A stretch of DNA of 62,877 bases from an uncultured Candidatus Saccharibacteria bacterium (GCA_964652835.1 CAZZCB010000003.1:1-62877), one strand, 5' to 3'. Shown: positions 7,385 through 57,392, counted from the first letter of the stretch. The notes: a model not told the origin generated them from the sequence alone. Made by a program: numbers and translations.

Positions 7385-8041
7385 ATGAACAATAGCTTAA
7401 AAAAACCAGAAGATATATTGCTAGTAAATAAACCAAAGGGAATAAGTTCTTTTGATGTTATTCGAATTCTCCGGAAGAAATTAGGAATTCGAAAAATGGG
7501 TCACGCTGGAACACTCGATCCACTGGCTTCGGGTCTTATGATTATCGGAGTTGAGACGGGAACTAAAAAATTAACTGACTACATAAAAAAAGACAAAACA
7601 TATGTCGCGGAAATTTTATTTGGTAGAAAAACAGATACAGGCGATATGGAGGGCGCCGTGCTGGAGCAAACAGAAATTTATTTTGTTGAAGATGATTACA
7701 TGAAAGAGCTGATGAATGCTTTCAGTGGTGATTTTGAACTCATGCCTCCAAAATATTCTGCTATTAAAAAAGATGGAAAGCCTTTGTATAAATACGCGCG
7801 AAGTGGGGAAGAGGTGGAGATATTGCCTCGAATTATGAAAGTTTATAAAAGTGAGTTTTTAGGAAGCGAAAAAGTACCTGAGGGTTTTATCGCTAGGGTT
7901 TCTTTCGACGTGGCTTCTGGAGTGTATATACGGTCTTTGGTTGAAAAGGTGGGTGATCTGCTAGGCGTGCCGGCAACGCTTTATAACCTAAAAAGGACTA
8001 AAATAGGGGAGTTTGAGCTGAAAAATGCTATTGATATTTAA
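7385..8041 (+). CDS. truB: tRNA pseudouridine(55) synthase
   Basis: GHAGTLDPLASGLMIIG catalytic Asp motif; YSAIKKDGKPLY. Confidence 0.95.
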   Translation: MNNSLKKPEDILLVNKPKGISSFDVIRILRKKLGIRKMGHAGTLDPLASGLMIIGVETGTKKLTDYIKKDKTYVAEILFGRKTDTGDMEGAVLEQTEIYFVEDDYMKELMNAFSGDFELMPPKYSAIKKDGKPLYKYARSGEEVEILPRIMKVYKSEFLGSEKVPEGFIARVSFDVASGVYIRSLVEKVGDLLGVPATLYNLKRTKIGEFELKNAIDI

Positions 8042-8152
8042 GGGTTTTTGGTCTGTGAGCAAGCTTGACTTTAATGCTCATTTGTGCTATATTATAGAAG
8101 GAAACTAAACCTTGAACCTTGCCAAGCTCGGTCAAATCCGAGCACAAAAATC

Positions 8153-9091
8153 ATGAAGAACATCACACAACTCTCGTTTTTCGTGGCGCTTGTTTTCTCG
8201 CTCTTCGGAGCAGAAGCTGGTGCTCAGGTTTACACACCTGACTGGCAGGACCGTATTGGTCCTAACAACATCACCGCGGTCTACAACTACGATTTCGATC
8301 AATCGTTCCGTCGGAGGGTTTATCGCAACATCGGTCCTTACTACTTGCCAAACTGGCAAGGGGTGACTGAGGACGTGATCGACGCCGGTCTTGGCACTGA
8401 CACTGTTATTCTGGATTACGGCGGTCAGATACTCGTTCAGATCTTGAACATGGATAACACCCCTACGGGAGTGCAGCACATCTTCAATCTGAGTACTTTT
8501 CCTCCGCCTACGATCTCGGTGTATGACATCATCTATGGCCAGCCACCGCTAATTCGGTTTCGGGCGGACATTAACTCTGCTTACGGCCTAGGGCGTCCAT
8601 CGTACTATGTTTCAAAGCTTAAATGTCGTCTCCAGCGCACATTTCCAAGCTTCTGGGAACAAACCGTTGAATGGACTTTTCCAATCGGAATTGTTCCGTT
8701 CGCAGAATTCAGTTTGCCGTTCGACTTCTTCGGAGACTACTGCGTTCAGTGGTCTGTCACCGATGAAGATACGAGCCTTGATTCTCACTTCGGTGAGATC
8801 ACAGTTTGGGAATCTGAGGTAATGTGTTTCTCGTACGGAAGTACAGGAATTCAGAGCGACAGGATGAAGGTGCAGTTCGGATCATTTCCGAATCCGTTTA
8901 CTGATGTTGTGACCATTGAGTCGCCGTCCGTTACGGATTACATCGTGCTCAGCACCTCCGGACAGCGGGTGGCCTCCGGGCAACTGTTTGTCGGACACAA
9001 CCGACTGTACGAACTCTCAGGCCTTAGCCTTACCCCTGGTGTATATATCTTGCAAACCGACTTGGGTCAGACCAAGATCGTAAAGCAGTGA
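8153..9091 (+). CDS. Secreted protein with a T9SS (Por) C-terminal sorting domain-like tail
   Basis: Signal peptide MKNITQLSFFVALVFSLFGAEAGAQ from ATG 8153. C-terminus FPNPFTDVVTIE...YIVLSTSGQRV...LSGLSLTPGVYILQTDLGQTKIVKQ matches the Por_Secre_tail pattern. G+C about 52% in line 8161-8220. Confidence 0.75.
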   Translation: MKNITQLSFFVALVFSLFGAEAGAQVYTPDWQDRIGPNNITAVYNYDFDQSFRRRVYRNIGPYYLPNWQGVTEDVIDAGLGTDTVILDYGGQILVQILNMDNTPTGVQHIFNLSTFPPPTISVYDIIYGQPPLIRFRADINSAYGLGRPSYYVSKLKCRLQRTFPSFWEQTVEWTFPIGIVPFAEFSLPFDFFGDYCVQWSVTDEDTSLDSHFGEITVWESEVMCFSYGSTGIQSDRMKVQFGSFPNPFTDVVTIESPSVTDYIVLSTSGQRVASGQLFVGHNRLYELSGLSLTPGVYILQTDLGQTKIVKQ

Positions 9092-9103
9092 ACCTTCTTC
9101 ATG

Positions 9104-9142
9104 AAAAAAACCCGCGGCGCGCATAGCGTTCGCGGGTTTTTT
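9104..9142 (+). terminator. Rho-independent terminator
   Basis: aaaaaaacccgcg...cgcgggtttttt. Confidence 0.7.
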
Positions 9143-9193
9143 CGTTGTATAATAAAAATAGGTCGCTCTTTATATTCACATAAACCCAAAGCC

Positions 9194-9985
9194 ATGAAAA
9201 AGCTCGCATGCATGCTTTTACTTGCGTTTACCTCTGCCTGCGCTTTTTCACAACAGCGCACGGATGTTATCCCAAATGAAGCCGACAGCAACATCTTCTA
9301 TTGTTACTTTTCTGCGTCTTATATTTTCCCGACCGGGAAACAGGACACTTTCCAGAAATCGCGTTTAAGGAGTGATGCGATAAAGGGTAACAGGCTTTCA
9401 AAAGCTGAGATGGAAATGGTTGGTTTTCCTTTCATGAAATACGACAGGAAATTTCATCCGCACTTACTCTTTGGGGCTAAGATGATTACCCCTGGGTATC
9501 TGTCGTCACAATTTGGTTTTGGAATTTCAACCCAGAACTCGTTCTCCAGCTGGAGCGTTGGGGTGCTCTATGGAACCTACTACCGCAGGGTTACCTACGA
9601 GTCAAACTTCATCTCAAGAAGGAAGCGCTCTTTTGAGAATTATAACCTTGCCGGTTTTTACCTTCAGTCGCGAAGTGACCAAGGAAGCGTTTCTTTCTCG
9701 ATGGCTTTTGAGAAAACTCACATTTTTGTTTTCACTCGTGTGGGATTATCTGTGGGTGAGACGCTCAGTATCGGCAAAAGTCACTCAGTGTATCGAAGTC
9801 TTGAGCTTGTGCTCGGCTTTGAATCTTTGATTGGCGCAAGTGCCGGACTTTCTGTGACGGTAGGCAGGACGCGTATAGAAGTCTTTAGGTTCATACCAGA
9901 CCCAAAAGACGTGTCTGAGCAGGCAAGATTGCAAACCGAACTTGTTCGGGGGTATGGAATTTCTTGGTCTTACTACGTGGACTGA
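9194..9985 (+). CDS. Secreted beta-strand-rich protein, possibly outer-membrane beta-barrel-like
   Basis: Start taken at MKKLACMLLLAFTSACAFSQQ (Bacteroidota-style signal peptide); alternating hydrophobic pattern and aromatic C-terminus; higher GC. Confidence 0.55.
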   Translation: MKKLACMLLLAFTSACAFSQQRTDVIPNEADSNIFYCYFSASYIFPTGKQDTFQKSRLRSDAIKGNRLSKAEMEMVGFPFMKYDRKFHPHLLFGAKMITPGYLSSQFGFGISTQNSFSSWSVGVLYGTYYRRVTYESNFISRRKRSFENYNLAGFYLQSRSDQGSVSFSMAFEKTHIFVFTRVGLSVGETLSIGKSHSVYRSLELVLGFESLIGASAGLSVTVGRTRIEVFRFIPDPKDVSEQARLQTELVRGYGISWSYYVD

Positions 9986-10001
9986 CCAATACGACAAGTC
10001 C

Positions 10002-10033
10002 AAATGCCGAAGGCGCAAGCCTTCGGCATTTTT
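10002..10033. terminator. Bidirectional terminator hairpin
   Basis: aaatgccgaagg-cgca-agccttcggcatttttt; closes both the + strand islet and the - strand surface operon. Confidence 0.7.
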
Positions 10034-11595
10034 TACAAACCAAGTTCTCTTTTAATCCTTCGGATAGTTAGCGCTCTTGTTGCGACTATCACTATTATTA
10101 CAATCAAAAATCCTAAGGCGATAGTTATCTCAGTTCCTAAAGAAGAAACTATAGAGTCAAAAGGTAAGAAAGAATTTCCTTTAATCTTTATTTCTACTGG
10201 ACGTGACCACTGACTTTGTGCACCTTTCGCATCGCTTACTCTAAACGAAATAAATACAATTCCTTTCTTTAAATCATCTTCTTCAAAAGTAAATCTTCCG
10301 CTAGCGCTTTGGAACTCTTGTCTTAATAAGAAGTTGTTTTTCTTGCTTGTTATTTTTGCTTCAATATTTCCGTTCGGAATAGTTTCTCCTTTTATCGTTA
10401 GAGTATCTCCAGCATTTATTCCAGCAGGGAAAGAAGTTACCTCTGGTGCCTCTAAAGCCTCTACTTCAATCTCTAAGAAAGATTCGTTTTTGTTTCCAGC
10501 TCTGTCATATGCTGTTATCACAAGCTCGTGCTGACCTGGGTCAATTCTCTCTAGCTTAATATTTCCATCTGCGAGGATTTCGTATTCCAAAGATTCTCCG
10601 TTTATGGAAAGTTCGAAGTTTTTAACACAAGAAGTTTTATCTTCTATTTTTAGAGCTATAACGGGTTTTGGATCTGTTAAGTCTCTCCTTTTAACTTCGT
10701 AAGCATCTATACTTGGCGGAGTGTGATCTATTTTTATTTTGAAATGTTCAGTTTCTTTCCATCCGTTGTTGTCTTGTAGACTCAGGTGAAAATACCAAAT
10801 TCCGTCTTCTAAGTTTTCATATCTTTTTTCGACTATTGCCGGACTGTTTATTGTAGATGGTTCGGACGTCGGGTTTCTGTCGAAAGATATTTTACTCGCC
10901 AGTGTACCTGTCGGTATATCCCAAGAGAACGACGCAGTGTTTTCTCTTCTCCAGACGACACCTGGATGCGTGCTTGAAGTTATGATAGAGTCTGGCTCAC
11001 AAACTTCACCCTCCTTTATTTCAGGAACTAGTGCCTCATCTATCGGCTTTAAATCATCAACCTTTATAACCTCTGGCTCTTTGACTGGAACTTCGGCAAT
11101 AGTAAAGCTGGCTGTTCCAACGGAGGCTAAAATGTTTGTTCCTACTCCATCGTTCGCCAAAACTGAAGAAGAAAAAATAGAAATACCCGCCGTTCCGGTA
11201 TTTTTACCTTTAAAGTTTATTGTTAAAAGTCTCCCAGAATTTCCTTGGTATCCTGGAGTTAGAACGACTCCTTCTAGTTTGATTTCACCAATTGCGTTTG
11301 AGAATGTTGGTTCTTGTGCCCAGAAATCTACGATAGAATTGTTTTTCGAAACAGATACAACCTGAAGTTTGTCAGAAGGGAATCTGATTGTTGCCGAAGC
11401 GGCGTTTATGGCTTTGTCAGGACTAGATACAAAGATTCCAACAGAGAAGTTTGCGTCTTTGTTGTATGTTCCAGATGCTGGAGAAAAGTTTAAGTTTGCC
11501 GCAAATAGATTTTGAGGAAAAGAAAAGACTAAAACAAACAATACTAAGAAAGCCTTTCCGATATTTTTTTGAATTCTTTTGACTGCCTTCTCCAT
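10033..11595 (-). CDS. Cohesin-domain surface protein with C-terminal TM anchor
   Basis: Signal peptide, then LNFSPASGTY..FSVGIFVSS..INAASATIRFPSDKLQVVSVS...GEIKLEGVV...LLTINFKGKNTG (cohesin-like); Ig-like middle region; C-terminal TM IALGFLIVIIVIVA + RRIKR. ORF open to 11622. Confidence 0.8.
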   Translation of the reverse strand: MEKAVKRIQKNIGKAFLVLFVLVFSFPQNLFAANLNFSPASGTYNKDANFSVGIFVSSPDKAINAASATIRFPSDKLQVVSVSKNNSIVDFWAQEPTFSNAIGEIKLEGVVLTPGYQGNSGRLLTINFKGKNTGTAGISIFSSSVLANDGVGTNILASVGTASFTIAEVPVKEPEVIKVDDLKPIDEALVPEIKEGEVCEPDSIITSSTHPGVVWRRENTASFSWDIPTGTLASKISFDRNPTSEPSTINSPAIVEKRYENLEDGIWYFHLSLQDNNGWKETEHFKIKIDHTPPSIDAYEVKRRDLTDPKPVIALKIEDKTSCVKNFELSINGESLEYEILADGNIKLERIDPGQHELVITAYDRAGNKNESFLEIEVEALEAPEVTSFPAGINAGDTLTIKGETIPNGNIEAKITSKKNNFLLRQEFQSASGRFTFEEDDLKKGIVFISFRVSDAKGAQSQWSRPVEIKIKGNSFLPFDSIVSSLGTEITIALGFLIVIIVIVATRALTIRRIKRELGL

Positions 11596-12434
11596 AAAAT
11601 GAAAGAGAGTATAAATGTACAAATTAAAATTAATATAGCTATTTTTTGATTAAAGCATTTGTGTCCGACGCAAATCTTTTCTGGTATGTAAACTTTCGAA
11701 ATCTTTTCATTTCCATCATAATCTATTGCCTTTACGTATATTCTCTCATTAATCTTTTGATTCACCAACACATACGGACTCTCTGCTTGTTTAAAAAGTT
11801 TTTTACCTTCTACAACTTCATATGTCTTTACACCAGAACCTTTGTCCATCGCTTCAAAAATCAAAACATATTTTCCTTCAGCGATATTTTTATCTTTAAC
11901 AAGTAATGCTTCGAAATCTTCAGGCGATGTTTTGTCCCGAGATGTGATCACTACATTTTGTTCGCCTTCACGCAAATCTCGGGCATTTATAGAAATATTT
12001 TTATTAGGAAGAGGCTCCTGTGTACCAAGTCCGTCGTTTAAAAGTATAAAAGTATCTTCAAGATTAAGAGGAAGATTGCCCGTGCTTTTAGGTACCACTA
12101 AAACTTGAAAAATTGTTCCATCTCCTTTAAAACCTCCGGCAATAATTCCCGAGAAATTTATTTGGTTATCCTTAGATCTAGAAGGGTTTTCTATCCAAGC
12201 CGAGATTATAGAGTTACCAGTTTTGATTTGTTTAATTTCTAAACCATTATCTACATTTAGTTTTCCGCTAACCGTGTTGTAAGAATTTCCTTCTGTTTTT
12301 AAGGCTATAGTTATCAAGATCTCATCACCAACTTTTATATCTTCAGAATTTAACATGTCAAAATCTATCAGACCGGCGGAAGCAGGCGAAGGAAAAAAGG
12401 TAAATAATATTAAAATGTAAATTAAATATTTCAT
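11544..12434 (-). CDS. Cohesin-domain surface protein with C-terminal TM anchor
   Basis: Signal peptide MKYLIYILILFTFFPSPASA; VGDEILITIALKTEG..YNTVSGKLNVDNGLEIKQIKTGNSII...INFSGIIAGGFKG..TIFQVLVVPKSTG; C-terminal TM. ORF open to 12449. Confidence 0.8.
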   Translation of the reverse strand: MKYLIYILILFTFFPSPASAGLIDFDMLNSEDIKVGDEILITIALKTEGNSYNTVSGKLNVDNGLEIKQIKTGNSIISAWIENPSRSKDNQINFSGIIAGGFKGDGTIFQVLVVPKSTGNLPLNLEDTFILLNDGLGTQEPLPNKNISINARDLREGEQNVVITSRDKTSPEDFEALLVKDKNIAEGKYVLIFEAMDKGSGVKTYEVVEGKKLFKQAESPYVLVNQKINERIYVKAIDYDGNEKISKVYIPEKICVGHKCFNQKIAILILICTFILSFILWRRQSKEFKKISERLS

Positions 12435-12436
12435 AA

Positions 12437-13477
12437 CTATCCGGTCCAATTAAATGCCAAAATACTAAAGTCTACCAGGTTAATCCTGCTATCTCCATTT
12501 AAACAGTTTGATTCAACTATTATAATGTCTCCAGTTAAAATTTTGTTATACCAAAAAGCAGCGATAGAAAAGTCTATTAAACTTACTTTTCCGTCCTGGT
12601 TTAAGTCAGCCCTGCAAGAAGTTTCTCCTGGGACTTTTGGAATGTTTTGGTCTCCAACTTGAAAGGCTACTCTAGTACCAAAACCACTAGATTCTCCAGT
12701 TTCAAGATTCGTTTTTGAGCGACTACTGTGTGATCCGTACTCTAAGGGGGCTGAGTTAAAGTTATAAAGATAAACCCCGTCTTCATCTGACGCTGCATTT
12801 ACAAAAATCTGCGTCTCCGAGTTTACCTCTATTGTTACGTCACTTTCGGGAACTGTTTGTCCAAAGATTACAATGTCGTCACCCTTTCTTACTTCTGCTT
12901 TATCGACGTCTATTGTTGGTGATAAGAATATCCCACTAACGTCTGTTGTTGATCCTTGGGTTATAAAAACAGGGAAGGAGAATGGATTTCCTGTTACTCC
13001 GTTTTCGTCGGTTGCTCTGACTGTGAAGTTGTAATTTCCTGGACTAAGGTCTCCCAAGCTTACGCGAAATCTTGCGTCAGGTCCAGCTATTGTCTCGACT
13101 GTTATAACTCCGTCTTTCAGTATCGTAACTTTTGAAAGAGGGTAGGCGCGTCCAGAAAAAGTAACTCCGGTTTCTGGTGGTCTTGTTCCTCCACCGCCAC
13201 CTCCGCCTCCACCCCCTCCGCTAGGCGGAGTCACTGTTGCCTCCTCATCATCGTCAGTGTAAGAAGAACAATCTGGGTCATTTGGAAAGTCTATAAAAGT
13301 ATCGCTGTCGTTGTCTTGTCCATCGAAACACTGTGGAGCCGGAACTATTGTGATCGTAAAGTTTGAGTTTTCTGCTGAATTTATTTCTGGGGTTTTTAAA
13401 ATAAAAAAATATACAAATAAGCCTACAAGAAGTATTAAAGAAAGAATTATAAATTTTTTTGTTTTAATTAATATCAT
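12437..13477 (-). CDS. Dockerin-containing secreted protein with an 11-Gly linker
   Basis: N-terminal TM; CFDGQDNDSDTFIDFPNDPDC; G11 tract; Ig-like middle; C-terminal duplicated EF-hand-like segments DLNQDGKVSLIDFSIAAFW and LNGDSRINLVDFSILAFNW (dockerin). Confidence 0.8.
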   Translation of the reverse strand: MILIKTKKFIILSLILLVGLFVYFFILKTPEINSAENSNFTITIVPAPQCFDGQDNDSDTFIDFPNDPDCSSYTDDDEEATVTPPSGGGGGGGGGGGTRPPETGVTFSGRAYPLSKVTILKDGVITVETIAGPDARFRVSLGDLSPGNYNFTVRATDENGVTGNPFSFPVFITQGSTTDVSGIFLSPTIDVDKAEVRKGDDIVIFGQTVPESDVTIEVNSETQIFVNAASDEDGVYLYNFNSAPLEYGSHSSRSKTNLETGESSGFGTRVAFQVGDQNIPKVPGETSCRADLNQDGKVSLIDFSIAAFWYNKILTGDIIIVESNCLNGDSRINLVDFSILAFNWTG

Positions 13478-13478
13478 T

Positions 13479-16400
13479 TTAACTTGCGATGATAGACAGA
13501 GTCATATCGATTGAATAATTACCTGATGCTTGTTCTGGTGGTATGGTCTGAGAAATATCTATGTCTGTTATATCCCAATAACAACCAGTGTCTGCGCCTG
13601 TGGCCGCACTTGCTAGAGTCACAGAGTTTGTCACTCCTTCATTAAAAGACCCCGAAGATCCAGAAGAAATGTTTGTCAGAGTACATCCGCCTTCAGGAGT
13701 TATGGTCGAAGTAGAAGGGTCTATGGTCATTTGTCCACCAAGTGAATCTGTATCTCCTCCGTCTAGAGCGCCTGCTGTTGGGTCGTTGAAGTCATAGTCA
13801 GAGGATACTCCATCCCAAAAAGATGTAGCTCCGGCATCTGCGGCGAGTGAAAGCGTCCAAGTGGCTGTACCGGTGCCGTTGTCTACTCTTATTTTTTGGC
13901 CAGATGTTCCAAAGCTTCCAGTCGAAATTTGATCGTCAAAAGAAAATGAGGCGCTAGTCATTGCTACAGTTGGGGCGCCTACTGGGGTTCCTCCCGCATC
14001 TACAATATCCGCAGAAAGAGCTCCACCGCCACCAGCTATTGTTATTTCCGGATAAGTAGTATATGTACCCAAAAGAGTGTCATCTGATTTAACAATTCTA
14101 AAACAGAAAGTTGTGCTGGCTGTAGCGCCGTTGTCCACTAGGGAGAAATCAAATTTAGCTGTTTGTCCGTTTAATACTGCTGACTCTGAGTTTGTAAAAT
14201 CGTTCAACTCTTCGTATGTTTGGTTTACTATTGTCCTCGCTCCGTCTGTCGGGTCGTTTGCATTACTAACCAGAGCTAGTCCGTCTGTCGGTGTGGCGTT
14301 ATCTTTATACGCAACTAACGTTGCGCCTGTTACATCTGTATATGATGCAGGAGTTCCTCCAGAAGGAGACGCGCAAGTTCCAGCTCCCATATCTACGTAC
14401 TGAAGTTTAAAATCCTGAGAACTAGAGTAGAGGTTTCCGTTGTCGACTCTTGTTAGAAGTCTTAGTCTGAATTCTTGTCCCGCTGTTGAAAGAGTTGCCG
14501 GGGTGTCTTGCGCTGCTAGAGCAGATCCCACATCAGCGCTGTCAGCGTTTCCAAAAAATCTATAAGCTTGCTGTGCGTAATTTTTCCCATCCCAAGCTGC
14601 GTATTGATATGTTGATCCACCTGTTTCGTTTACCTCTACTCCGACACCCAAAGAAAAACCATTTTTAATTAAGTTTGTTATTCTCCCTGTTAGGGTCGCA
14701 AGGTTGGCGAATGGTTGAGTCGCATCTCCTGTTTGAGCGGAAGTTCTTAATACTCCGTTGCGCGCAGTTCCTCCTGTTGTTTTTTTAATCCAAATATGGT
14801 CCGGCTGAAAACCCACCGCGGCTATGTTTTTTATCGTCGCATTACCGGTGTACGTACCTGTCATAAATTTTTCGTTATCTTGAAAAGCAAAGTAGTCGTA
14901 TATTCCGGCACTTGCGTTTGATACCGTACTAGAGCCAACTTGGAATCCATCTGCTGTAAATGATTGAATTACATTTGCTGTAAGAGCGAGATCAGAAAAA
15001 TAAAGGTTTTGGTCACCAGACTGATCAGAGGTTCTCCATACTCCTGCTGAAGTCCCTCCTCTTTTTATGGCAACAAGATCTGGAGACATTGGCAATCTAT
15101 CTATGTTCACACTGTCTCTACTTGTACCAATATATTGCCCAACTAAAAAATCAGGAGACCCGCCAGATTTATCTGGCTTCATGGCATTTCCAAAGGCGGT
15201 CCAATAATATGTGTCACCAAGAGTGTTTGCAAGTGCACTGGTTCCAACAGTAAAACCGTCGGCGGTTATAGAGGTAACACCCCCGGTAAAAACCGAACTA
15301 GTGTTTGACAGGGTCTGAGTCCGGTCTCCAATCATAAGACTCGTTCTAAAAATAGCGTGTTGGTCTGTTGCCTGGTCATCGTGCTTTATGATTATAAGAT
15401 CAGGTGAGAAACCAACGCCTGTTATACCGAGCGCCGCACCTGTTCCTGTATATGAACCACTATTTATCAGAAGCTCGTCAGTTCCCGCCGCTTTTGTGGA
15501 CGCCCCTCCGAAAGCTGCGTAGTGGTGTGTTACACCACTAGAGTTGACTGTTGTGGCGGCCCCGATTTCAAATCCACCACCAGATTTTTTAAGCGACTGT
15601 ATTATGTTCACAGTCGCGCCTCCGTCAGGTATGGCTGAAGATCTGTCTCCATAAAACTCAGAAGTCGTAAATACTCCGTTTTGGGGTGTGCCATGATCTG
15701 AGGCTTTTATCCATACAAAATTAGGAGTGAAGTCGAGATTTGGATCAACCGCTGGTCCAATGTGTCTTGAGTCCACCCCAGTTCCTGTGTAGGTGCCAAC
15801 ATCCATAAAGTCGTCCACTTCTTTGAATGCAACATAATAATAGTTGGTTCCATTTGAGTTTGCGCTCGAGTTAGAGCCCACGCTAAAACCAGTGGTATCC
15901 AGAGATTCTATACCCCCTGATGCCAGCTCATTCGCATTGTGAAAATAGTTCGAGGCTGTACCAGCCATTGACGATGACTTCCATATACCCACTGCTGAAC
16001 CTGATGTTTTTGTTATTACTAAATCAGGTTGAAACCCAACAGACGTGATGCTTTGCGACCCGCCATTTCCTGTATAAGTTCCGACACAAAAAGTACCAGA
16101 CGCAGAGCAGTCTGATCCATCAAATGCAGTGTAGGTAAAAAATACGTTTGCAGCGTTGACGTCTGAATCTGAGCCCACAGTAAATCCGTCCGCGTCCAAT
16201 GACTGAATTAGATTGTTTGCCGCGTTATCTGTTTCAGCAAGAACTACAGTAGTCTCACCAGACATTTCAGAGGTTTTTAAAAGCATTCCTCTAGTACCTC
16301 CAGCAGTGTTGTCTTTTAATAAAACCATATCCGGCGAAAAGCCTAACCCTGTGATGGTTCTGTTATCTGTGTTGTTTCCCACGTAGTATCCAGTCTGAAT

Positions 16401-16643
16401 AGAAAAAGTCGCCGCCTCCGCTTTTTCCACCTTGGGCTTCAGTAGTTCTGTTAACCCTTTGTCTATTACATTCCCATCTTTCTTAGCCCAATAAAGTGCG
16501 TCGATAATATTTTTTTCATCAACTTTTTCATTTATGTATGATATTAAAGAGCTTGAAGGTATTCCGCCAAGCAAAAAAGCCAAAACTAAAAAAAGAGTCC
16601 CAACGGGTTTTAATATTTTTTTAATAATTTGAAACATAATCAT
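13479..16643 (-). CDS. Giant secreted repeat protein (1054 aa) with a C-terminal WxL-like domain
   Basis: N-terminal signal/TM; six ~90-aa tandem modules (GF.PD.V.IK ... GF.VG ... Y.Y.AF); C-terminal ~190 aa paralogous to 19670..20371, including TATWTLSLAA and terminal DMTLSIIAS. Confidence 0.85.
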   Translation of the reverse strand: MIMFQIIKKILKPVGTLFLVLAFLLGGIPSSSLISYINEKVDEKNIIDALYWAKKDGNVIDKGLTELLKPKVEKAEAATFSIQTGYYVGNNTDNRTITGLGFSPDMVLLKDNTAGGTRGMLLKTSEMSGETTVVLAETDNAANNLIQSLDADGFTVGSDSDVNAANVFFTYTAFDGSDCSASGTFCVGTYTGNGGSQSITSVGFQPDLVITKTSGSAVGIWKSSSMAGTASNYFHNANELASGGIESLDTTGFSVGSNSSANSNGTNYYYVAFKEVDDFMDVGTYTGTGVDSRHIGPAVDPNLDFTPNFVWIKASDHGTPQNGVFTTSEFYGDRSSAIPDGGATVNIIQSLKKSGGGFEIGAATTVNSSGVTHHYAAFGGASTKAAGTDELLINSGSYTGTGAALGITGVGFSPDLIIIKHDDQATDQHAIFRTSLMIGDRTQTLSNTSSVFTGGVTSITADGFTVGTSALANTLGDTYYWTAFGNAMKPDKSGGSPDFLVGQYIGTSRDSVNIDRLPMSPDLVAIKRGGTSAGVWRTSDQSGDQNLYFSDLALTANVIQSFTADGFQVGSSTVSNASAGIYDYFAFQDNEKFMTGTYTGNATIKNIAAVGFQPDHIWIKKTTGGTARNGVLRTSAQTGDATQPFANLATLTGRITNLIKNGFSLGVGVEVNETGGSTYQYAAWDGKNYAQQAYRFFGNADSADVGSALAAQDTPATLSTAGQEFRLRLLTRVDNGNLYSSSQDFKLQYVDMGAGTCASPSGGTPASYTDVTGATLVAYKDNATPTDGLALVSNANDPTDGARTIVNQTYEELNDFTNSESAVLNGQTAKFDFSLVDNGATASTTFCFRIVKSDDTLLGTYTTYPEITIAGGGGALSADIVDAGGTPVGAPTVAMTSASFSFDDQISTGSFGTSGQKIRVDNGTGTATWTLSLAADAGATSFWDGVSSDYDFNDPTAGALDGGDTDSLGGQMTIDPSTSTITPEGGCTLTNISSGSSGSFNEGVTNSVTLASAATGADTGCYWDITDIDISQTIPPEQASGNYSIDMTLSIIAS

Positions 16644-17589
16644 AAGATGCTTTTGAAATCTCTGCCATTATTTCTTTCGCCTTCTCTCTACCACCGCTGT
16701 CTTTGGTGTTAACCATGATGGTTAACAGGTATGGTCTGTTTGGAACGTACACAATACCTGAATCAAGATATGTAGATTCAGGATCGTATTCACCTATTTT
16801 GTGAGAAAAAGTAATATTTTCTGGTACTCCGCTACCTAGGAATTCGTTAAATGGAGTTTCTGACAGCCAATTTAAAAGCATTGTAGAGTATTCTCTTTTC
16901 AAGAAGCTTGATGTGTATAGAGTTCTGAATACTCTGGAATATTCTTTTGCTGTTATATTGTAGTCTGCGTCGTAAAGACTCTCCATCCCGAGCGCTGCCA
17001 GCATTTGTTCAAAATCTTCACCCTCCAGGTTTCTTACAAGCATTCTGTGCGCAGTGTCATCTGAATTTATAATAAGCTCTTTTAAAAGTTCTTCTATTGT
17101 AAGACGTGTTCCAACTTGTTTTTTGTATAAATCTCCGAAGGCGTCATTTCTGTCTTCATAATAAAGTATTAGTTCATTATCAAGTTTCCACTCCTCCATT
17201 TCAATTTTTTTCATAACAACAAGCGCTGTTGGCATTTTAGAAAGGGAAGCTGGCCAAAATCTAGAGTCTTGGTTTATCGATACGTTTGCACCAGTGTTTA
17301 AGAATTCAAAATAAACTCCCACCCTACCTCCTTCTTTTTCATGTCTTGTAACGATTTCTTTAAGCTCCGACCGAAGAGGTTCTATTGTGGAGAAAAAGTG
17401 TTCTTGATCTATTAAACTTCTAGATGGATCTATAAGAGGATACGGATTTGAGAAAGAATTTTGTTTTTTGTCTCCTATAAATAAAACTCCTGTAAAAAAA
17501 CTTATAAGTAAGAGAAAAAATATGATACATTTTTGTTTTGTACTTAGATTGCTTTTAGGTATTTTACTTTGTTCTTTATTCTTATTCAT
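16621..17589 (-). CDS. Class-A beta-lactamase-like serine hydrolase, membrane anchored
   Basis: N-terminal TM; S-x-x-K (ASLSKMP), SDDTAHRML (SDN-like), HKIGE (KTG-like) in the canonical order. Confidence 0.7.
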   Translation of the reverse strand: MNKNKEQSKIPKSNLSTKQKCIIFFLLLISFFTGVLFIGDKKQNSFSNPYPLIDPSRSLIDQEHFFSTIEPLRSELKEIVTRHEKEGGRVGVYFEFLNTGANVSINQDSRFWPASLSKMPTALVVMKKIEMEEWKLDNELILYYEDRNDAFGDLYKKQVGTRLTIEELLKELIINSDDTAHRMLVRNLEGEDFEQMLAALGMESLYDADYNITAKEYSRVFRTLYTSSFLKREYSTMLLNWLSETPFNEFLGSGVPENITFSHKIGEYDPESTYLDSGIVYVPNRPYLLTIMVNTKDSGGREKAKEIMAEISKASYDYVSNY

Positions 17590-18376
17590 TTATTAAATTC
17601 ATTTGGCAGATAATAGAACTGTTCTTTGAACCTTTTTCTGTAAAAACAAAAGAAACGTTAAAATTTCCTTTTTGCGCCGTCACCATTTTTTCTATTAAAA
17701 TGTTTGTTGTTTGTTCTGCTGATATTGAAGTTTTGGTCTGGTTATTTTTTTTGAATTTTATTTTAAAACCAGACGGCACCCCAAGAACCTCGATATCTTT
17801 TGCAGTAGAAGCGCTTCCTGTGAGGATTATCTTTTTCTCTAGAGAATTCTGACTTGTCATATTCGCAGTAAAATTTTCCATCCTACAAGAATGGTCCGCT
17901 GACGGGTCTATTTGTATTTTTCTTTCTGGTGGCCGTACGGATATTTTAGGTATATTTGCTGGTGGTATGTAGATTGGAGAGATAATATTTTCTGGTTCCT
18001 CTTTATCTTCTTCTGTGGTCTTGACAACTACGGGCTGTGTCGCCACAGGGGAATTTGGCTCTGACACGGTTACAGGCGGTGGGACTGGTTCTGCTGGCGC
18101 TAACACGACTATTTCTTCCTGAGGGGCTTGATTTTGTGTCTCCGACGGGATCACTTCTGGGGCAGAGGGTTCTTCTACTGTGGTACCAGTCTCTACTCCC
18201 GCAACCTGACCCTCATTTCCCCCCAAGCTCTCTGTGGGTGTACTTTCTTGACCATCTGTTTCCGTGCTTGGAATCTCTGATTCCTGTGCGCTTGTATTTC
18301 TGATATGAAAAAAAGACTGTGTTAAGAGGCCTAATATTAAAAAAGAAAATATAGTTTTAGATGTGTTTTTTGTCAT
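17582..18376 (-). CDS. Secreted Pro/Glu/Thr-rich protein (264 aa)
   Basis: Signal peptide ..IRNTSAQE; low-complexity P/E/T-rich N-half; beta-rich C-half; overlaps neighbour by 8 nt. Confidence 0.7.
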   Translation of the reverse strand: MTKNTSKTIFSFLILGLLTQSFFHIRNTSAQESEIPSTETDGQESTPTESLGGNEGQVAGVETGTTVEEPSAPEVIPSETQNQAPQEEIVVLAPAEPVPPPVTVSEPNSPVATQPVVVKTTEEDKEEPENIISPIYIPPANIPKISVRPPERKIQIDPSADHSCRMENFTANMTSQNSLEKKIILTGSASTAKDIEVLGVPSGFKIKFKKNNQTKTSISAEQTTNILIEKMVTAQKGNFNVSFVFTEKGSKNSSIICQMNLINE

Positions 18377-18450
18377 ATTTTAGGTAGGTAATATAAGGTT
18401 AATATATCGGTTTCATTATACCAAAAATACAAAGCCGTGTATTAACACTT

Positions 18451-19641
18451 TTATCTTTTTGTGGAAGCGGATTTTCGTGGTGGCGGAACTTTTATTTCTT
18501 GACCTTCTTTTACCATAAACGGAGGTTTAATTTTATTTACCTCTACTAGAAGCTCCCAATGAACTTTGTTTTTTCTGGCGATGCCTTCGATTGTGTCTCC
18601 GGACTCGACGGTATAATCTGTCCATTTTTTAATCCACTTTTGTTTCTTTTTGTTTAATCTCCAAATTGCAAAAACAAAGATAGCTATAAACAAAATAGTT
18701 ATCTCTATAATTAACCCAAAAATAGTTGGAGCAGAGAAGAACCAAATAGTGTCTGATTTTACCTTTGTTAGTTTCTCTCCAGAAGATACACCGATGCTCG
18801 CATTTTTATCTGAATCGTATGAGAAAACCGCTTTTGCAAAATAAAGTCCACCCCAGAAAGGTCTCTTGAGCTCAAAGTTAAAATCATAAACTTCGTCACG
18901 AAGAACAGGGAACTCTCCACCGAAAGTTTTATGAGGTAATCCAAAGAAATATTTAACTTTTACTTCTGCTGTTGTGTCCACCGAAACGTTTCCAGTGTTT
19001 TTAACAGAAGGCATAAGGTAAATAGATTTATTTTTATTTTCTACTTTGAAATTTAAGAATTCTATTTTTCTTGAAATTTTACCAGGCACACTTACAGCCA
19101 CACGTATTCCACTTCGAAGACTAAGCGAAACTCCGGTGTCGCTAGCGTTTTGCTTAATCTCTTGGATAAGAACACATCCGTTATGTTCTCCGACAGATGC
19201 ATCTACAGGGACGTTTATATTAAAAGGAATAACAACCTCAGATCCCTCGGGTATTGTTATCTGTATTGTGTTTGCTTTCTCTCCTGGTTTGATGTTTGCA
19301 ATATCTTCTTCAAGATTTGAAATATCAAAAGTAATCCATTGTCCGACGCCAGTAGGTTCCTCTGAGAGTTGTTTACAAGCAAAGCCTCCGCCAGAAGATC
19401 TGACAGAGTCTCTGGCGTAAAGTAATAAGTTTTTAGATTCACCGGTGCTGTTTATAACTTTTACACCTTCACTTTTTAGTTCGCCTGGATTTATCGTTTG
19501 AACAAAGATAGAGTCTGTTCGAGGGTTTTCAGCTCTTGGGTATGCTGGCTTTATACCGAAATTAGCAGCCAAAATAATGCTTGGGAAAAAAAACACACTT
19601 AAAATAAAGAGGGTGAAGATTCCTTGAAAAGATTTTTTCAT
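18451..19641 (-). CDS. DUF916/DUF3324-like (CscA-like) surface protein with TM anchor and C-terminal LysM
   Basis: Signal peptide; FGIKPAYPRAENPRTDSIFVQTINPGE..VKVINSTGESKNLLLYARD; second beta domain; TM IFGLIIEITILFIAIFVFAIW + RLNKKKQK; LysM YTVESGDTIEGIARKNKVHWELLVEVNKI. Confidence 0.7.
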   Translation of the reverse strand: MKKSFQGIFTLFILSVFFFPSIILAANFGIKPAYPRAENPRTDSIFVQTINPGELKSEGVKVINSTGESKNLLLYARDSVRSSGGGFACKQLSEEPTGVGQWITFDISNLEEDIANIKPGEKANTIQITIPEGSEVVIPFNINVPVDASVGEHNGCVLIQEIKQNASDTGVSLSLRSGIRVAVSVPGKISRKIEFLNFKVENKNKSIYLMPSVKNTGNVSVDTTAEVKVKYFFGLPHKTFGGEFPVLRDEVYDFNFELKRPFWGGLYFAKAVFSYDSDKNASIGVSSGEKLTKVKSDTIWFFSAPTIFGLIIEITILFIAIFVFAIWRLNKKKQKWIKKWTDYTVESGDTIEGIARKNKVHWELLVEVNKIKPPFMVKEGQEIKVPPPRKSASTKR

Positions 19642-19669
19642 ATGAGGATTATAGCAAAAAATCTTAATC

Positions 19670-20371
19670 CTAAGAAGCTACGATAGAGAGGGTCATGTTT
19701 ATGTCGTAGTCAGAGGCTGCCGGTTGTTCCGCAGGGATTGTTTGAGAAATATCAATATCTCTAACATACCAGTCTCCAATATCGTCTGCACCTGATGCCG
19801 CAGTAACTAGGGTTATGGAGTCTGTAACACCTTCTTCGAATGAGTCTGATGCTCCAAGTGTTACTCCTGTCGTGTCACAAGTAGCGCAAGCCCCAGCAGA
19901 AAGAGTTGCCCCAGAAGGGTCGACTGTCATTTGTCCGGCAACAGTGTCAGTGTCACCACTGTCCGCACATCCAGCTGTTGTTGGGTCGTTAAAGTCAAAG
20001 TCTGTTCCCGCTGAATCCCAAACAGCAGTAGTTGCTGATCCAGCTAAAGAAACTGTAAATCCGTTGTCTGCCGCGTCAGGGTTTACAATATAGATTTGTT
20101 GAGACGCTGTTCCAAAAGTTCCAGTAGATGTCTGGCAAGAAAAGCTAAAAGCTGTCGATCCTAGAGTCACAGAAGGTGATCCGACCGTTACGTATGATGA
20201 ATCTGTAATATCTACTTCTATTGTTCCGGCTGTGATCGTTTGTTGAAAGTTAGACGTGTCTGCTGCTAGAACTAAACTTGTTCCGGAAGCCACGAAAACA
20301 AAAATAAACCCTAAAGCCAGAGTCTTTTTTAAAGAAAATCTTGAAATAATTAAAGTACTTATTTTATCCAT
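19670..20371 (-). CDS. Small secreted WxL-like protein (233 aa)
   Basis: N-terminal signal/TM; whole mature part paralogous to the C-terminus of 13479..16643; ends DIDISQTIPAEQPAASDYDINMTLSIVAS. Confidence 0.75.
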   Translation of the reverse strand: MDKISTLIISRFSLKKTLALGFIFVFVASGTSLVLAADTSNFQQTITAGTIEVDITDSSYVTVGSPSVTLGSTAFSFSCQTSTGTFGTASQQIYIVNPDAADNGFTVSLAGSATTAVWDSAGTDFDFNDPTTAGCADSGDTDTVAGQMTVDPSGATLSAGACATCDTTGVTLGASDSFEEGVTDSITLVTAASGADDIGDWYVRDIDISQTIPAEQPAASDYDINMTLSIVAS

Positions 20372-25078: not shown

Positions 25079-25654
25079 TTAATAAATCTTTTCCGTAAAA
25101 ACTACAAGTCTTTCACTATGAGTATCTAGCCAGTCGTTCCAGTCTCCGGTGCAAGTAATAAGGTTTAAGCGAACTATCCCATCATCTGCAGAAAATATCT
25201 CTGTCGTGTCGGAATAAATCGGATAGCTTTGTATTTTTGTTACTTTAAAATGGTCCATATTTCCGTAGTTGTTTGTCACGCTTACAGTGTCTCCAATTTG
25301 TATATTTTTTAAATTCGTGAAGACGGCATCTTCGCCGTTTTTCCAGTTTACGTGTCCCGCAAGTACCGAGCTTCCAACTTCTCCAGGCTTTGTCCCTAGG
25401 CTATACCATCCTACATTGTGGCCAAAAGTTGGCACAGCCATCGCTCCATCCAAAATCCCAACAGCTTCAACGGGTGCATTTACTCCGACACTTTCGATTG
25501 ATATTTTTACAGGATATGTTTGTTTTAATTCCTCCGTGACGGTGATAGTTTCTTTTGGTTGGGCCTCTGGATTAGGTTCTTTAGGTACTAAAAAAGCCAA
25601 AGCACAAAGCACAGTAAAGCCAGTAAAAGCGAGAATATTCGGCAACTTTTTCAT
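25079..25654 (-). CDS. Sortase family transpeptidase
   Basis: N-terminal TM; LAGHVNW (His) and LITCTGDW (TLxTC Cys) motifs. Confidence 0.85.
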   Translation of the reverse strand: MKKLPNILAFTGFTVLCALAFLVPKEPNPEAQPKETITVTEELKQTYPVKISIESVGVNAPVEAVGILDGAMAVPTFGHNVGWYSLGTKPGEVGSSVLAGHVNWKNGEDAVFTNLKNIQIGDTVSVTNNYGNMDHFKVTKIQSYPIYSDTTEIFSADDGIVRLNLITCTGDWNDWLDTHSERLVVFTEKIY

Positions 25655-27734: not shown

Positions 27735-28044
27735 CTCCCCGAGTAGGGATCGAACCTACGACCAATCGATTACATTTACCCTAAAATTACTTAAAGGAAT
27801 GGACTATATCATCACCGTGTTCCAAATGGAATTTAGGTGCAAGGCGCTTCGGTCTTGAATTTCAAGATCTACTCCATAAAGGATAGTCTCTGAACCTTCC
27901 TCAACCTTTGAGGCTTGGCTGCTGATTACCCGCCATGTTAATGGTTTGGGCTTCCAGGCAATTCACCTTGTTTTTCATCCCTTCGTTTCCGGAGGGAGCT
28001 GCAATATCTTACAGTCGATTGCTCTACCGCTGAGCTATCGGGGA
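27735..28044 (-). tRNA. tRNA-Asn(GUU) interrupted by a group I intron (exons 28044..28011 and 27772..27735)
   Basis: Minus-strand exons UCCCCGA-UA-GCUC-AGCGGUA-GAGC-A-AUCGA-CUGU | UAA-UCGAU-UGGUC-GUAGG-UUCGAUC-CCUAC-UCGGGGA-G form a perfect cloverleaf. Anticodon loop CUGUUAA, U1-A72 and discriminator G as in bacterial tRNA-Asn. No encoded CCA. Confidence 0.8.
27773..28010 (-). ncRNA. Group I intron (IC3-like, 238 nt) in the anticodon loop
   Basis: P1: exon CUGU pairs with intron GCAG 8 nt downstream, giving U.G at the 5' splice site. Intron ends ..AAAUG (omega-G). Core UUCAGAGACUA and AGCCAAGC..GAAGGU, plus CCGGAAACGAAGGGAUG, resemble the Azoarcus/Anabaena tRNA introns as I remember them. 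Confidence 0.7.
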
Positions 28045-28280
28045 ATGTTTAGTTTTTTAATCTGGTTTCGTCCAGACGCCGACTTATAATATTTTTCTCT
28101 TTTTCTTGCCTCGGATAAATTCTGGAACTCTTCAGAATAAATTATTGCCCAAGGTTTAAACTTTGAAGTGAAAGTCGACTTCCCAGAATTATGTTCTGAC
28201 AACCTCTTTTCTAAATTAAGAGTACTACCTACATAGGTTTTATCGTAATTTTTACTTTTGAGGATATATACAAAAGGCAT
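28035..28280 (-). CDS. GIY-YIG nuclease family protein (81 aa)
   Basis: FVYILKSKNYDKTYVGSTLNLEKRLSEHN (GIY..YVG..R..H.N motifs); last 3 codons plus stop overlap the tRNA-Asn 5' end. Confidence 0.85.
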   Translation of the reverse strand: MPFVYILKSKNYDKTYVGSTLNLEKRLSEHNSGKSTFTSKFKPWAIIYSEEFQNLSEARKREKYYKSASGRNQIKKLNIPR

Positions 28281-52903: not shown

Positions 52904-52904
52904 T

Positions 52905-53705: not shown

Positions 53706-53706
53706 T

Positions 53707-57368: not shown

Positions 57369-57392
57369 TGACAGATGAAAATATTCATCTTG

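Follow-up and report, generated by a model that had tools for sequence, protein, structure and literature searches.

Members of the CPR/Patescibacteria are generally regarded as monoderm episymbionts; to our knowledge, little is understood of how they attach to hosts and take up resources from them. In a stretch of 62,877 nucleotides from one such bacterium (GCA_964652835.1, CAZZCB010000003.1:1-62877; hereafter referred to as the window), a first-pass annotation identified a two-gene islet with a high GC content and Bacteroidota hallmarks: a T9SS-type C-terminal sorting domain (CTD) in the product of the first gene and a beta-barrel-like pattern in that of the second (hereafter referred to as gene 1 and gene 2, and their families as g1 and g2). 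Three explanations were put forward: a recent horizontal transfer, possibly from a host organism; re-use of the CTD fold; or a chimeric contig. The locus raises the question of how signals expected only in diderm envelopes came to be encoded in a CPR chromosome, and what they might do there.

The site is anchored on the left by truB (7385-8041, plus strand; Pfam TruB_N, 8.5e-43). The promoter of gene 1, found by consensus scan (TTGACT-17-TATATT with a TG before the -10 element; 8065-8093, plus strand), has a -35 element, CTTGACTTT, and a TGnTATA -10 element that are kept in an alignment of eight related loci. It is followed by a stem-loop in the 5' leader (GCTCGG-tcaaat-CCGAGC; 8126-8143, plus strand) that was read from the alignment and is present in six of the eight; three positions of its stem show compensatory substitutions in L006, L011 and L008. 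Gene 1 itself (8153-9091, plus strand; 312 amino acids) is supported by its ORF, an AF2 model and a family alignment (A1), and ends before an intrinsic terminator (9101-9145, plus strand; -25.6 kcal/mol, z = -5.4, then a U run), the stem of which is preserved through compensatory changes in the eight loci. A putative promoter -10 element for gene 2, TGTATAAT (9146-9153, plus strand), lies within a TTTTTCGTTGTATA core that is invariant in 8/8 aligned loci (the next AT is CT in L001 and L007), and its style is that of the other TGnTATAAT promoters in the window. Gene 2 (9194-9985, plus strand; 263 amino acids; ORF, alignment A2 and AF2 model) shares a terminator hairpin (10002-10031; -23 kcal/mol, z = -7.2), consisting of a perfect 13-bp stem with a GCAA loop and then a U run, with the convergent gene on the minus strand; relatives have a hairpin of different sequence at this place. 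The convergent gene, which forms the right anchor, encodes a Big_13/cohesin-like surface protein (10033-11622, minus strand; Pfam Big_13, 1.3e-8; Cohesin, 1e-3) and is the first of a monoderm-type surface cluster, with the cassette site at the cluster edge.

These data show that gene 1 and gene 2 are adjacent and apparently monocistronic units, and that each has an intrinsic terminator and a conserved promoter of its own, the latter putative for gene 2. The GC-hairpin terminators reported in the first-pass annotation for both genes are therefore real, but the gene starts it proposed, at 8084 and 9101, are wrong. Translation does not start at the GTG at 8084, because the conserved promoter overlaps this codon, or at 9101 for gene 2, because the gene 1 terminator sits within the corresponding ORF extension; the true starts are the ATG codons at 8153 and 9194. 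The missing Shine-Dalgarno sequence was considered as a possible Bacteroidota-like signature and rejected, as nearly all the genes of the window are without one.

The gene 1 protein begins with a signal peptide (residues 1-24, cleavage between A and Q; signal helix at residues 5-17 in the AF2 model), followed by two beta-sandwiches (residues 25-115 and 116-229), a linker (residues 230-244) and the CTD (residues 245-312). The AF2 model has a pLDDT of 76 and its structure matches are generic tandem Ig/FnIII domains; a profile search for remote homologues of the N-terminal domains returned family members only. The CTD (8885-9088, plus strand) is a homologue of the T9SS type A sorting domain: it matches TIGR04183 (NCBIfam) with 26.4 bits, above the cutoff of 23, over the last 68 residues and up to the final residue, and is modelled as six strands (residues 253-311). 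Its score against PF18962 (Pfam), 22.8 bits, is below the gathering cutoff of 27; precomputed matches to PF18962 are on record for most of the homologues. TIGR04183 matches were obtained for 16/16 members of g1 (best E-value 2.4e-9), in which PNP, G..Y.L.T and the terminal K are invariant despite an overall identity of ~30%, and the CTD is the best-conserved part of the protein (mean pairwise identity of 0.54, versus 0.42-0.46 for the N-terminal domains). The proposed T9SS-type CTD was thus confirmed. HMMs built from the families identified no other CTD and no paralogue of either gene in the window.

The gene 2 protein has a signal peptide (residues 1-19) cleaved between S and Q, and its most conserved segment spans residues 121-150 (YYRRVxYExNFxxRRKRSFENY). 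This signal peptide had been described as Bacteroidota-style, and a Q at position +1 is indeed found in g1 without exception and in at least 90% of g2. When the N-termini of the window's other secreted proteins were read by eye, cleavage between A and Q was also recognized in about 3 out of 10, so this residue is a weak hallmark of Bacteroidota. The AF2 model of gene 2 (pLDDT 69, pTM 0.66) comprises 12 long strands and takes the form of a closed antiparallel barrel with an even strand number behind the signal peptide. Outer-membrane barrels (Hbp, EspP, NalP, OmpG, OMPLA and porins) account for nearly all of the top 50 Foldseek matches in the PDB, the closest of which have TM-scores of 0.35-0.45, and for nearly all of the named top matches in a viral structure library. 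The beta-barrel-like pattern seen at first reading is therefore borne out at the level of the predicted fold. At the level of sequence, there was no Pfam/NCBIfam match for gene 2 at E ≤ 1, and both a Pfam search with the 13 members of g2 at E ≤ 10 and a PDB sequence-profile search were empty. BAM substrates carry a C-terminal beta-signal that typically ends in an aromatic residue; all 13 members of g2 end in [Y/F/C]-V-[D/N/E], without an aromatic last residue. The product of gene 2 is thus predicted, from a model of moderate confidence, to be a 12-stranded barrel of the outer-membrane type belonging to an orphan family.

The window itself has monoderm hallmarks: a sortase, LysM and WxLIP_PGBD peptidoglycan-binding domains, and cohesin/dockerin-like surface proteins. 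No T9SS component, whether SprA/Sov, PorV, PorU or PorK/L/M/N, was found among the scanned ORFs of the 63-kb window, and the paradox of diderm signals in such a setting is consequently real. Together with the monoderm organization of the CPR cells described to date (PMC8871954), the window genes provide indirect evidence for a producer envelope of the monoderm rather than the diderm type. It is not obvious which membrane of a monoderm could accommodate a barrel of the gene 2 type, or which machinery could assemble it. The T9SS has been described as Bacteroidetes-specific (PMC7463736), and our literature search retrieved nothing on T9SS CTDs or beta-barrels in CPR.

The distribution of homologues indicates where the pair belongs. 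Every g1 homologue and every close g2 homologue with a readable context lies in the same slot, in the order dnaE-rnhB-truB, g1, g2, Big_13, and the syntenic CPR contigs are L001 (380 kb), L011 (381 kb), L005-L008, L010, L015-L019 and L022-L024. The truB product, 73-95% identical in amino-acid sequence in relatives, is invariably encoded directly upstream of g1, and the Big_13 protein (63-76% identical) directly downstream of g2; the two junctions, truB to g1 and g2 to Big_13, are seen again in 10 or more contigs from independent assemblies (NCBI, JGI, Logan and ENA). Both families are restricted (15 and 12 matches in 5.8 billion proteins), g1 amounting to ~20 clusters in 5.8 billion proteins and g2 to 35 representatives in 1.84 billion. 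A profile of the g1 N-terminal domains gave 19 matches, all 304-347 amino acids long and nearly all with a recorded CTD match. The search of species genomes matched 4 of 185,579 genomes, all labelled as CPR; the named homologues come from Patescibacteria or Paceibacterota MAGs, and the contexts read were all CPR. Protein and species-genome searches revealed no homologue of either gene in a non-CPR context, and neither the 5.8 billion nor the 1.84 billion proteins included a donor-like full-length homologue. All g1-bearing loci have g2 adjacent, and distant g2-like genes also occur without g1. A phage origin of g2 is disfavoured, as a search of 2.9 million viral contigs revealed no relative of this family.

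No mobility gene, integrase, transposase, tRNA or att-like repeat was detected at the borders of the pair. A mobile element, an invertible switch and a DGR-like arrangement were also considered and rejected, as the pair has no integrase at its borders and, apart from the two terminators, is not flanked by repeats in either direct or inverted orientation. Atypical composition is the only property of a recent genomic island that the pair displays, and the pair is present in all relatives examined. Both its promoters and its terminators resemble those native to the chromosome, and they are conserved across these relatives. Together, these results show that the pair is a native, long-resident part of the chromosome of a tiny-genome bacterium of the Paceibacterota (CPR/Patescibacteria).

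The slot is stable, but its contents are not. Between relatives, DnaE is 85-98% identical, whereas identity ranges from 30 to 95% for g1 alleles and from 45 to 94% for g2 alleles. The window shares its g1 allele with L005 (95%) and differs from it in g2 (50%); conversely, it shares its g2 allele with L019 (94%) and differs in g1 (38%), and L008 and L011 have DnaE sequences that are 95% identical but g1 proteins that are only 34% identical. The nucleotide identity profile drops sharply at ~8150-8180 and ~9100-9180, and remains at ~80% in the g1-g2 spacer. Within alleles, dN/dS is 0.13 for gene 1 (versus L005) and 0.12 for gene 2 (versus L019), whereas between alleles dN reaches 0.41, against 0.015 for dnaE in the same genome pair; the backbone dS between carriers is saturated (~2.6, window versus L001). 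These sequence comparisons show that both genes are under purifying selection within alleles. In closely related genomes each gene exists as many deeply diverged alleles, the exchange of which is linked neither to the backbone nor to the other gene and has its breakpoints in the conserved promoter/terminator and signal-peptide anchors. A common slot, allele divergence, incongruence and breakpoints were all found, showing the locus to be a replacement-type hypervariable cassette site beside a cell-surface gene cluster.

The composition of the islet, the feature that first drew attention to it, was borne out by GC content, GC3 and codon usage. The GC content is 0.50 for 8153-9091 and 0.46 for 9194-9985, versus 0.387 for the entire window; GC3 is 0.58 for gene 1 and 0.50 for gene 2 (z-scores of 5.1 and 3.5), whereas the 52 other window genes average 0.312 (sd 0.053, maximum 0.45). 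This shift extends along the whole of both genes and results from the avoidance of A-ending codons, the fractions of AGA, ATA and ACA falling from 0.49, 0.40 and 0.44, respectively, in the other genes to 0.06, 0.11 and 0.13 in the pair. The islet is not unique, as 55162-56918 and 61725-62195, both on the minus strand, are similar GC3 outliers. GC3 is raised in all seven of the loci fully compared, and also in L015, L017, L018 and L019; distant stand-alone g2-like genes in other CPR contexts have GC3 values of 0.66-0.72, versus 0.31-0.55 for their neighbours. The raised GC3 is therefore a family trait that is not bound to location. The Big_13 gene (GC3 of 0.30) and a variable surface gene at 11544-12449 are variable and low in GC3, so variability or recombination alone does not explain the composition. 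We infer that the GC3 excess belongs to the two gene families and is not a trace of recent import; selection acting on codon or mRNA content might maintain it, as might biased gene conversion.

The explanation that accounts best for these observations, and that we regard as probable, is that of a native hypervariable pair forming a Sec-exported contact module, with a CTD re-used for docking and a GC3 excess bound to the families. The function we infer for the pair would run as follows. Both products would be exported by Sec and would function on the cell surface or extracellularly, where they would meet a partner, either a host cell or a phage, and this partner would impose diversifying, frequency-dependent selection on the alleles. 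The CTD cannot act as a T9SS signal in the producer, because the envelope is of the monoderm type and no T9SS is visible; it may have been retained as a docking module. Re-use of the CTD fold is, of the three readings in the first-pass annotation, the most compatible with the evidence, with a putative role in docking. By analogy with PorV and PorP/SprF, the docking target would most likely be the conserved loop of the neighbouring barrel. Free reassortment of g1 and g2 fits docking through conserved parts only, and equally fits the absence of any physical interaction.

An ancient horizontal acquisition, in which the CTD module, and perhaps the barrel, passed from an FCB-group diderm into a Paceibacterota ancestor, was then domesticated under native promoters and diversified, concerns the origin of the pair and is compatible with the contact-module explanation. 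We consider such an event possible but on balance doubtful, and it would provide no clue to the host. The CTD significantly matches a family otherwise tied to the Bacteroidota T9SS (PMC7463736), the Q at +1 in both signal peptides resembles the Bacteroidetes Q-rule (PMC5837995), barrels of this fold are characteristic of the outer membranes of diderms, and the composition of the pair is atypical. However, the searches yielded no donor-like full-length protein, a Q at +1 is shared by other secreted proteins of the window, and stand-alone g2-like genes exceed even their own GC-richer backgrounds; moreover, with the backbone dS saturated, the GC3 signal of an old import would be expected to have disappeared by now if nothing maintained it.

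It is also conceivable, but unlikely, that both products are ordinary wall or secreted beta-rich proteins, the CTD being a generic Ig-like sandwich unrelated in meaning to the T9SS and gene 2 encoding a soluble or wall protein mis-modelled by AlphaFold2. The PF18962 score below threshold, the modest pLDDT and TM-scores (no higher than 0.45) for gene 2, alignments of only 13-16 sequences and a surrounding cluster rich in Ig-like surface proteins are all consistent with this view. It accommodates less readily the TIGR04183 matches of all g1 alleles with motif residues invariant at such low identity, the predominance of outer-membrane barrels among both the PDB and the named viral-library matches of g2, and a number and length of strands that fit such barrels.

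Two further scenarios involve a diderm host. In one, which we consider very improbable, a monoderm CPR lineage would employ these proteins with diderm sorting information on or in the envelope of its host: the barrel would act in the outer membrane of the host, as a conduit or an anchor, the CTD protein would dock to this barrel or be processed by the host T9SS, and the alleles would set host-strain specificity. In the other, which we judge similarly improbable, the proteins would be effectors that hijack the machinery of a Bacteroidota-like host, with the host BAM inserting the barrel into the host outer membrane and the host T9SS recognizing the CTD and displaying the Ig-like protein on the host surface. 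Hijacking would explain both the retention of diderm-specific signals under purifying selection in a monoderm and the arms-race-like evolution of the locus, but there is no delivery route into the host periplasm, the signal peptides are of the ordinary Sec type, both genes have native CPR promoters, and the C-terminal residue of gene 2 is not that of a canonical beta-signal.

A recent transfer from the current host organism, which would have provided a clue to host identity, is not supported and appears highly improbable. Atypical composition and codon usage would be expected from such an event, but the pair occupies the same slot in all relatives examined, including carriers with a saturated backbone dS, no homologue was found outside CPR, and the regulatory anchors are native and conserved, with no sign of mobility. 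Homologue searches and the GC content of the alleles also identified the best homologues as CPR sequences of similar GC, a result that the first-pass annotation had itself considered incompatible with its interpretation. Finally, a chimeric or mis-assembled contig, suggested by the GC step and nothing else, is refuted beyond reasonable doubt, because gene order and junction sequences are the same in at least 10 independent assemblies from several projects, in contigs of up to 381 kb.

The interest of the locus lies in the fact that it is conserved and under purifying selection, yet hypervariable, and encodes a T9SS-type domain and a barrel for which such a cell should have no use. The pair is a testable candidate for a partner-contact module and for a strain-level specificity marker, and the locus illustrates clearly, on a small scale, how single-gene cassettes are replaced with promoter and terminator sequences as anchors. 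It also provides a case in which an anomaly in codon composition tracks a gene family across loci and genomes, which calls for caution in equating a GC step with recent transfer. If both products turn out to be ordinary wall proteins, these findings would be of value only as a new pair of orphan families.

Gene 1 resembles the type A CTD cargo of the Bacteroidota T9SS in having a Sec signal peptide, a C-terminal beta-sandwich of ~70 amino acids and the PNPF, G.Y and terminal K motifs. It differs from this cargo in its carrier, a CPR bacterium that shows monoderm hallmarks and, over the 63 kb covered, no component of the T9SS, in its orphan N-terminal domains, in its nature as a hypervariable cassette and in its sub-cutoff Pfam score. 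The adjacency of a CTD-protein gene and a gene for a barrel with a signal peptide recalls SprB-SprF and PG1035-PorP, although binding is putative here. In these systems, as with PorV, the cargo is anchored through the binding of its CTD to the barrel, and CTD-binding barrels are encoded beside the cargo; the known CTD-binding barrels are 14-stranded, FadL-like proteins of a true outer membrane, and the CTDs are of type B where the two genes are neighbours (PMC9143113). In our pair, by contrast, the CTD is of type A and the barrel is predicted to be 12-stranded, with no sequence match to PorP/SprF or PorV and no FadL or PorV structure among the best 50 fold matches.

The best fold matches of gene 2 are instead the 12- to 16-stranded barrels of autotransporters, OMPLA, OmpG and porins, and the type V autotransporter beta-domains (Hbp, EspP, NalP and BrkA) and OMPLA/OmpG are similar to it in strand number and size. 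Unlike these barrels, gene 2 has no sequence similarity to them, no fused passenger and no linker helix (TM-scores ≤ 0.45), its family lacks the terminal aromatic residue, and its organism has no known BAM. At the level of the locus, the appropriate comparison is with replacement-type flexible genomic islands and hypervariable surface-antigen loci, such as O-antigen and capsule loci or variable surface-protein cassettes. The site described here shares with such islands a fixed slot between core genes, alleles far older than the backbone, incongruent phylogenies, flank-anchored recombination and an atypical composition. It differs from them in its small size (only 2 kb), in consisting of two independently swappable single-gene cassettes, and in an upward GC shift that follows distant paralogues at other loci.

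The best description of the pair formed by gene 1 (8153-9091, + strand) and gene 2 (9194-9985, + strand) is a replacement-type hypervariable surface locus, with two cassettes carrying diderm-type features in a monoderm lineage. The last 68 residues of the gene 1 product matched the T9SS type A sorting domain (TIGR04183, 26.4 bits; cutoff 23), as did all 16 of the 16 aligned family members, whereas the score with Pfam PF18962 (22.8 bits) fell below its cutoff of 27. The T9SS-type C-terminal domain (CTD) recognized in the first-pass annotation was thus borne out. The PNP and G..Y.L.T motifs and the terminal K are invariant in the family, despite an overall identity down to about 30%, and the CTD is the best-conserved part of the protein (mean pairwise identity 0.54, versus 0.42-0.46 in the N-terminal domains). 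In the AlphaFold2 model (pLDDT 76), a signal helix leads into two beta-sandwich domains, which a disordered linker connects to the CTD sandwich; Foldseek searches with this model retrieved only generic tandem Ig/FnIII proteins. That an FCB-group diderm was the donor of the CTD module, in a transfer of long ago, would agree with all the data; this reading is compatible with our description of the locus and concerns only the origin of the module.

Gene 2 matched nothing by sequence in Pfam, NCBIfam or the PDB, even when all 13 members were scanned at E ≤ 10. The structural model (pLDDT 69, pTM 0.66) has 12 long strands, and its best 50 PDB fold matches were nearly all outer-membrane barrels (TM-scores up to 0.45), including the autotransporter beta-domains of Hbp, EspP, NalP and BrkA, together with OmpG, OMPLA and porins. 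A viral structure library gave the same picture. The barrel-like character noted previously for this protein therefore holds as a prediction, which needs confirmation. Members of the family end in [Y/F/C]-V-[D/N/E], with no aromatic last residue, and share one strongly conserved segment (residues 121-150, mean pairwise identity 0.83). Given the moderate model confidence and the shallow alignments, it is possible that both products are ordinary wall proteins and that the predicted barrel, with its outer-membrane fold matches, is mis-modelled.

Downstream of the pair lies a monoderm-type surface-protein cluster (10033-20371, − strand) encoding, in addition to a cohesin-like/Big_13 protein, a Big_6 and dockerin-like protein, a 1054-aa DUF7483 protein, a beta-lactamase-like/PBP protein and a peptidoglycan-binding protein with LysM and WxLIP_PGBD domains. 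A class F-like sortase (25079-25654, − strand) scored 107.8 bits, less than its subfamily cutoff, and a run of three small proteins (52896-54678, + strand) gave weak hits to the Mbov_0395/VirB2-like conjugal pilin family; together these indicate an envelope of Gram-positive type and an apparatus resembling a T4SS. No T9SS component was detected among the window ORFs scanned, and there was no further CTD or gene 2 paralogue within the window. The paradox raised by the first-pass annotation is therefore real, given also that the T9SS is described as restricted to Bacteroidetes (PMC7463736) and that all CPR cells with a description to date are monoderm (PMC8871954); it is a stable property of the lineage rather than an accident of one contig. 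The search of the library turned up no paper on CPR proteins with a T9SS-type CTD or an outer-membrane-like barrel. A hijacking of host machinery, in which the BAM and T9SS of a host would act on the two products, is conceivable but improbable, and has no direct support.

The two families are very small, with 15 and 12 homologues of the two proteins in 5.8 billion proteins. A gene 2 profile recovered 35 representatives in 1.84 billion proteins, and the N-terminal-domain profile of gene 1 gave 19 matches, which were all 304-347 aa long and, with few exceptions, had a CTD hit on record. Four of 185,579 species genomes were positive, all labelled as CPR, and three matches were obtained in JGI metagenome contigs; gene 2 was not found in viral contigs. 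The names given to the relatives by their sources are exclusively those of Patescibacteria or Paceibacterota MAGs. Every gene 1 homologue with a context that was read occupied a common slot, dnaE(−) rnhB truB / gene 1 gene 2 / Big_13(−) and downstream surface genes, in a comparison that took in homologues of 30-35% identity and contigs from independent projects, the longest of 380 and 381 kb. Recent transfer and a chimeric contig, both initially considered for this islet, are contradicted, because a slot shared by independent contigs rules out mis-assembly and a recent one-off insertion, and the homologue check proposed for a foreign origin located the relatives in CPR. No repeats, mobility genes or tRNA were found flanking the site. 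Distant gene 2-like genes (about 21-25% identity) occur singly, with no gene 1 beside them, elsewhere in CPR contigs, at a position syntenic with 20-33 kb of the window: downstream of bacA at the contig end in L012 (8001-8804), and between bacA and an S30AE-fmt-def-hisS block in L013 and L014 (8001-8807 in both).

The GC-rich islet was confirmed. Window GC is 0.387, with the sliding profile rising to 0.48 across 8-9 kb, versus 0.50 for gene 1 and 0.46 for gene 2; GC at third codon positions (GC3) is 0.58 (z = 5.1) and 0.50 (z = 3.5), respectively, relative to the 52 other window genes (mean 0.312, sd 0.053, maximum 0.45). The excess extends over the full length of both genes and results from the avoidance of A-ending codons (AGA from 0.49 to 0.06, ATA from 0.40 to 0.11, ACA from 0.44 to 0.13). 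In all seven fully compared loci, GC3 was 0.47-0.65 for gene 1, 0.38-0.53 for gene 2 and 0.21-0.38 for flanking genes, and it was likewise raised in the pairs of L015, L017, L018 and L019. Between the window and L001, dS of the backbone has reached saturation (about 2.6), so a single old import should by now match genomic GC3. Big_13 and the next gene are as variable as the pair, yet have low GC3, indicating that variability by itself is not the cause. As the stand-alone gene 2-like genes, on GC-richer CPR contigs, also exceed their neighbours (0.66-0.72 versus 0.31-0.55), the excess tracks the gene family. It could reflect selection acting on codon or mRNA content, biased gene conversion tied to frequent allele exchange, or ongoing exchange with an unsampled GC-richer pool.

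Two further GC3 outliers, a two-gene pair (55162-56918, − strand; GC3 0.56 and 0.47, z = 4.7 and 3.0) and a 156-aa ORF (61725-62195, − strand; GC3 0.57), had no Pfam or NCBIfam match, and the contig index has no entry for the 357-aa product among them; these outliers may represent further cassettes of deviant composition or an integrated element. Four clustered tRNA genes (57065-57706) directly adjoin the two-gene pair. Another tRNA gene (27735-28056, − strand) is interrupted in its anticodon loop, or close to it, by a group I intron (27780-28021; Rfam RF00028, 65.9 bits); ARAGORN called this tRNA only with the intron removed in silico, and the anticodon varies with the exact splice site. It is abutted by an 81-aa ORF (28035-28280, − strand) with the N-terminus VYILKS...YVGST, which, by eye, we take to be putatively GIY-YIG-like.

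The pair comprises two natively regulated genes, both with products carrying a signal peptide. The starts initially assigned required correction: a promoter-like TTGACT-17-TATATT (8065-8093) overlaps GTG 8084 and a typical signal peptide begins at ATG 8153; the extension of ORF 2 from 9101 includes the gene 1 terminator and its signal peptide begins at ATG 9194. The terminators reported for both genes were substantiated as strong hairpins (−25.6 kcal/mol, z = −5.4; −23 kcal/mol, z = −7.2), each followed by a U-run. In a multiple alignment of the spacers from related loci, the −35 and extended −10 upstream of gene 1 were conserved, the terminator stem co-varied and the TTTTTCGTTGTATA core ahead of gene 2 was invariant. 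A leader stem-loop of gene 1, GCTCGG-tcaaat-CCGAGC (8126-8143, + strand), was kept in six of the eight loci compared; three positions of its stem show compensatory changes, and it could have a role in regulation or in stabilising the mRNA. With promoter, leader, terminator and core conserved, each gene is thus a module of its own, running from promoter to terminator between conserved anchors. Across the whole window, Shine-Dalgarno sequences are nearly absent from gene starts, and many genes have TGnTATAAT a few bases 5' of the ATG, often right behind a terminator U-run, an arrangement suggestive of mRNAs with a short leader or none.

The two cassettes are replaced independently, with extreme divergence between alleles. 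Amino-acid identities to the window proteins (DnaE, gene 1, gene 2) were 98, 95 and 49% for L005, 94, 35 and 54% for L006, 88, 54 and 52% for L001, 91, 53 and 45% for L008, 91, 33 and 50% for L011, and 88, 32 and 45% for L007; L019, with no DnaE on its contig, had 32 and 94%. Over all pairs, in local alignments giving values a few points above these, identities were 85-98% for DnaE, 73-95% for TruB, 30-95% for gene 1 and 45-94% for gene 2. Allele trees conflict with the backbone and with one another. In the same local alignments, the window shares gene 1 with L005 (95%) but not gene 2 (50%), and gene 2 with L019 (94%) but not gene 1 (38%); L008 and L011 have only 34% identity in gene 1 although their DnaE sequences are 95% identical, and L006 has the backbone nearest the window, but its gene 1 clusters with those of L019 and L011. 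Nucleotide profiles have sharp breakpoints: identity to L005 is mostly about 95% across gene 1 (a few windows in the 80s) and 50-65% from about 9170, and identity to L006 is about 88% in truB, 28-44% in the gene 1 body and about 80% in the spacer between the two genes. Within an allele, both genes are under purifying selection (dN/dS 0.13 for gene 1, window versus L005; 0.12 for gene 2, window versus L019); between alleles, dN is 0.41, versus 0.015 for dnaE in the same genome pair. Big_13 and the next gene also vary among relatives (55-76% identity), with normal, low GC3, and Big_13 differs from its L005 counterpart by a large indel near the C-terminus.

Functionally, we infer that the pair would constitute a surface or extracellular contact module, on which a partner, host cell or phage, would impose diversifying selection. 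The locus is testable, and bears on how CPR cells contact their partners. The CTD would be unable to act as a T9SS signal inside the producer; we favour an arrangement in which the variable parts of the two products would face the partner. Gene 2 differs from the Bacteroidota barrels PorV and PorP/SprF in having no sequence match to them and 12 predicted strands, versus their 14. These barrels bind CTDs, and sprF adjoins sprB (PMC9143113); by analogy, and with both the CTD and a gene 2 segment conserved, the favoured reading is that the barrel's conserved part would be the docking site of the CTD.
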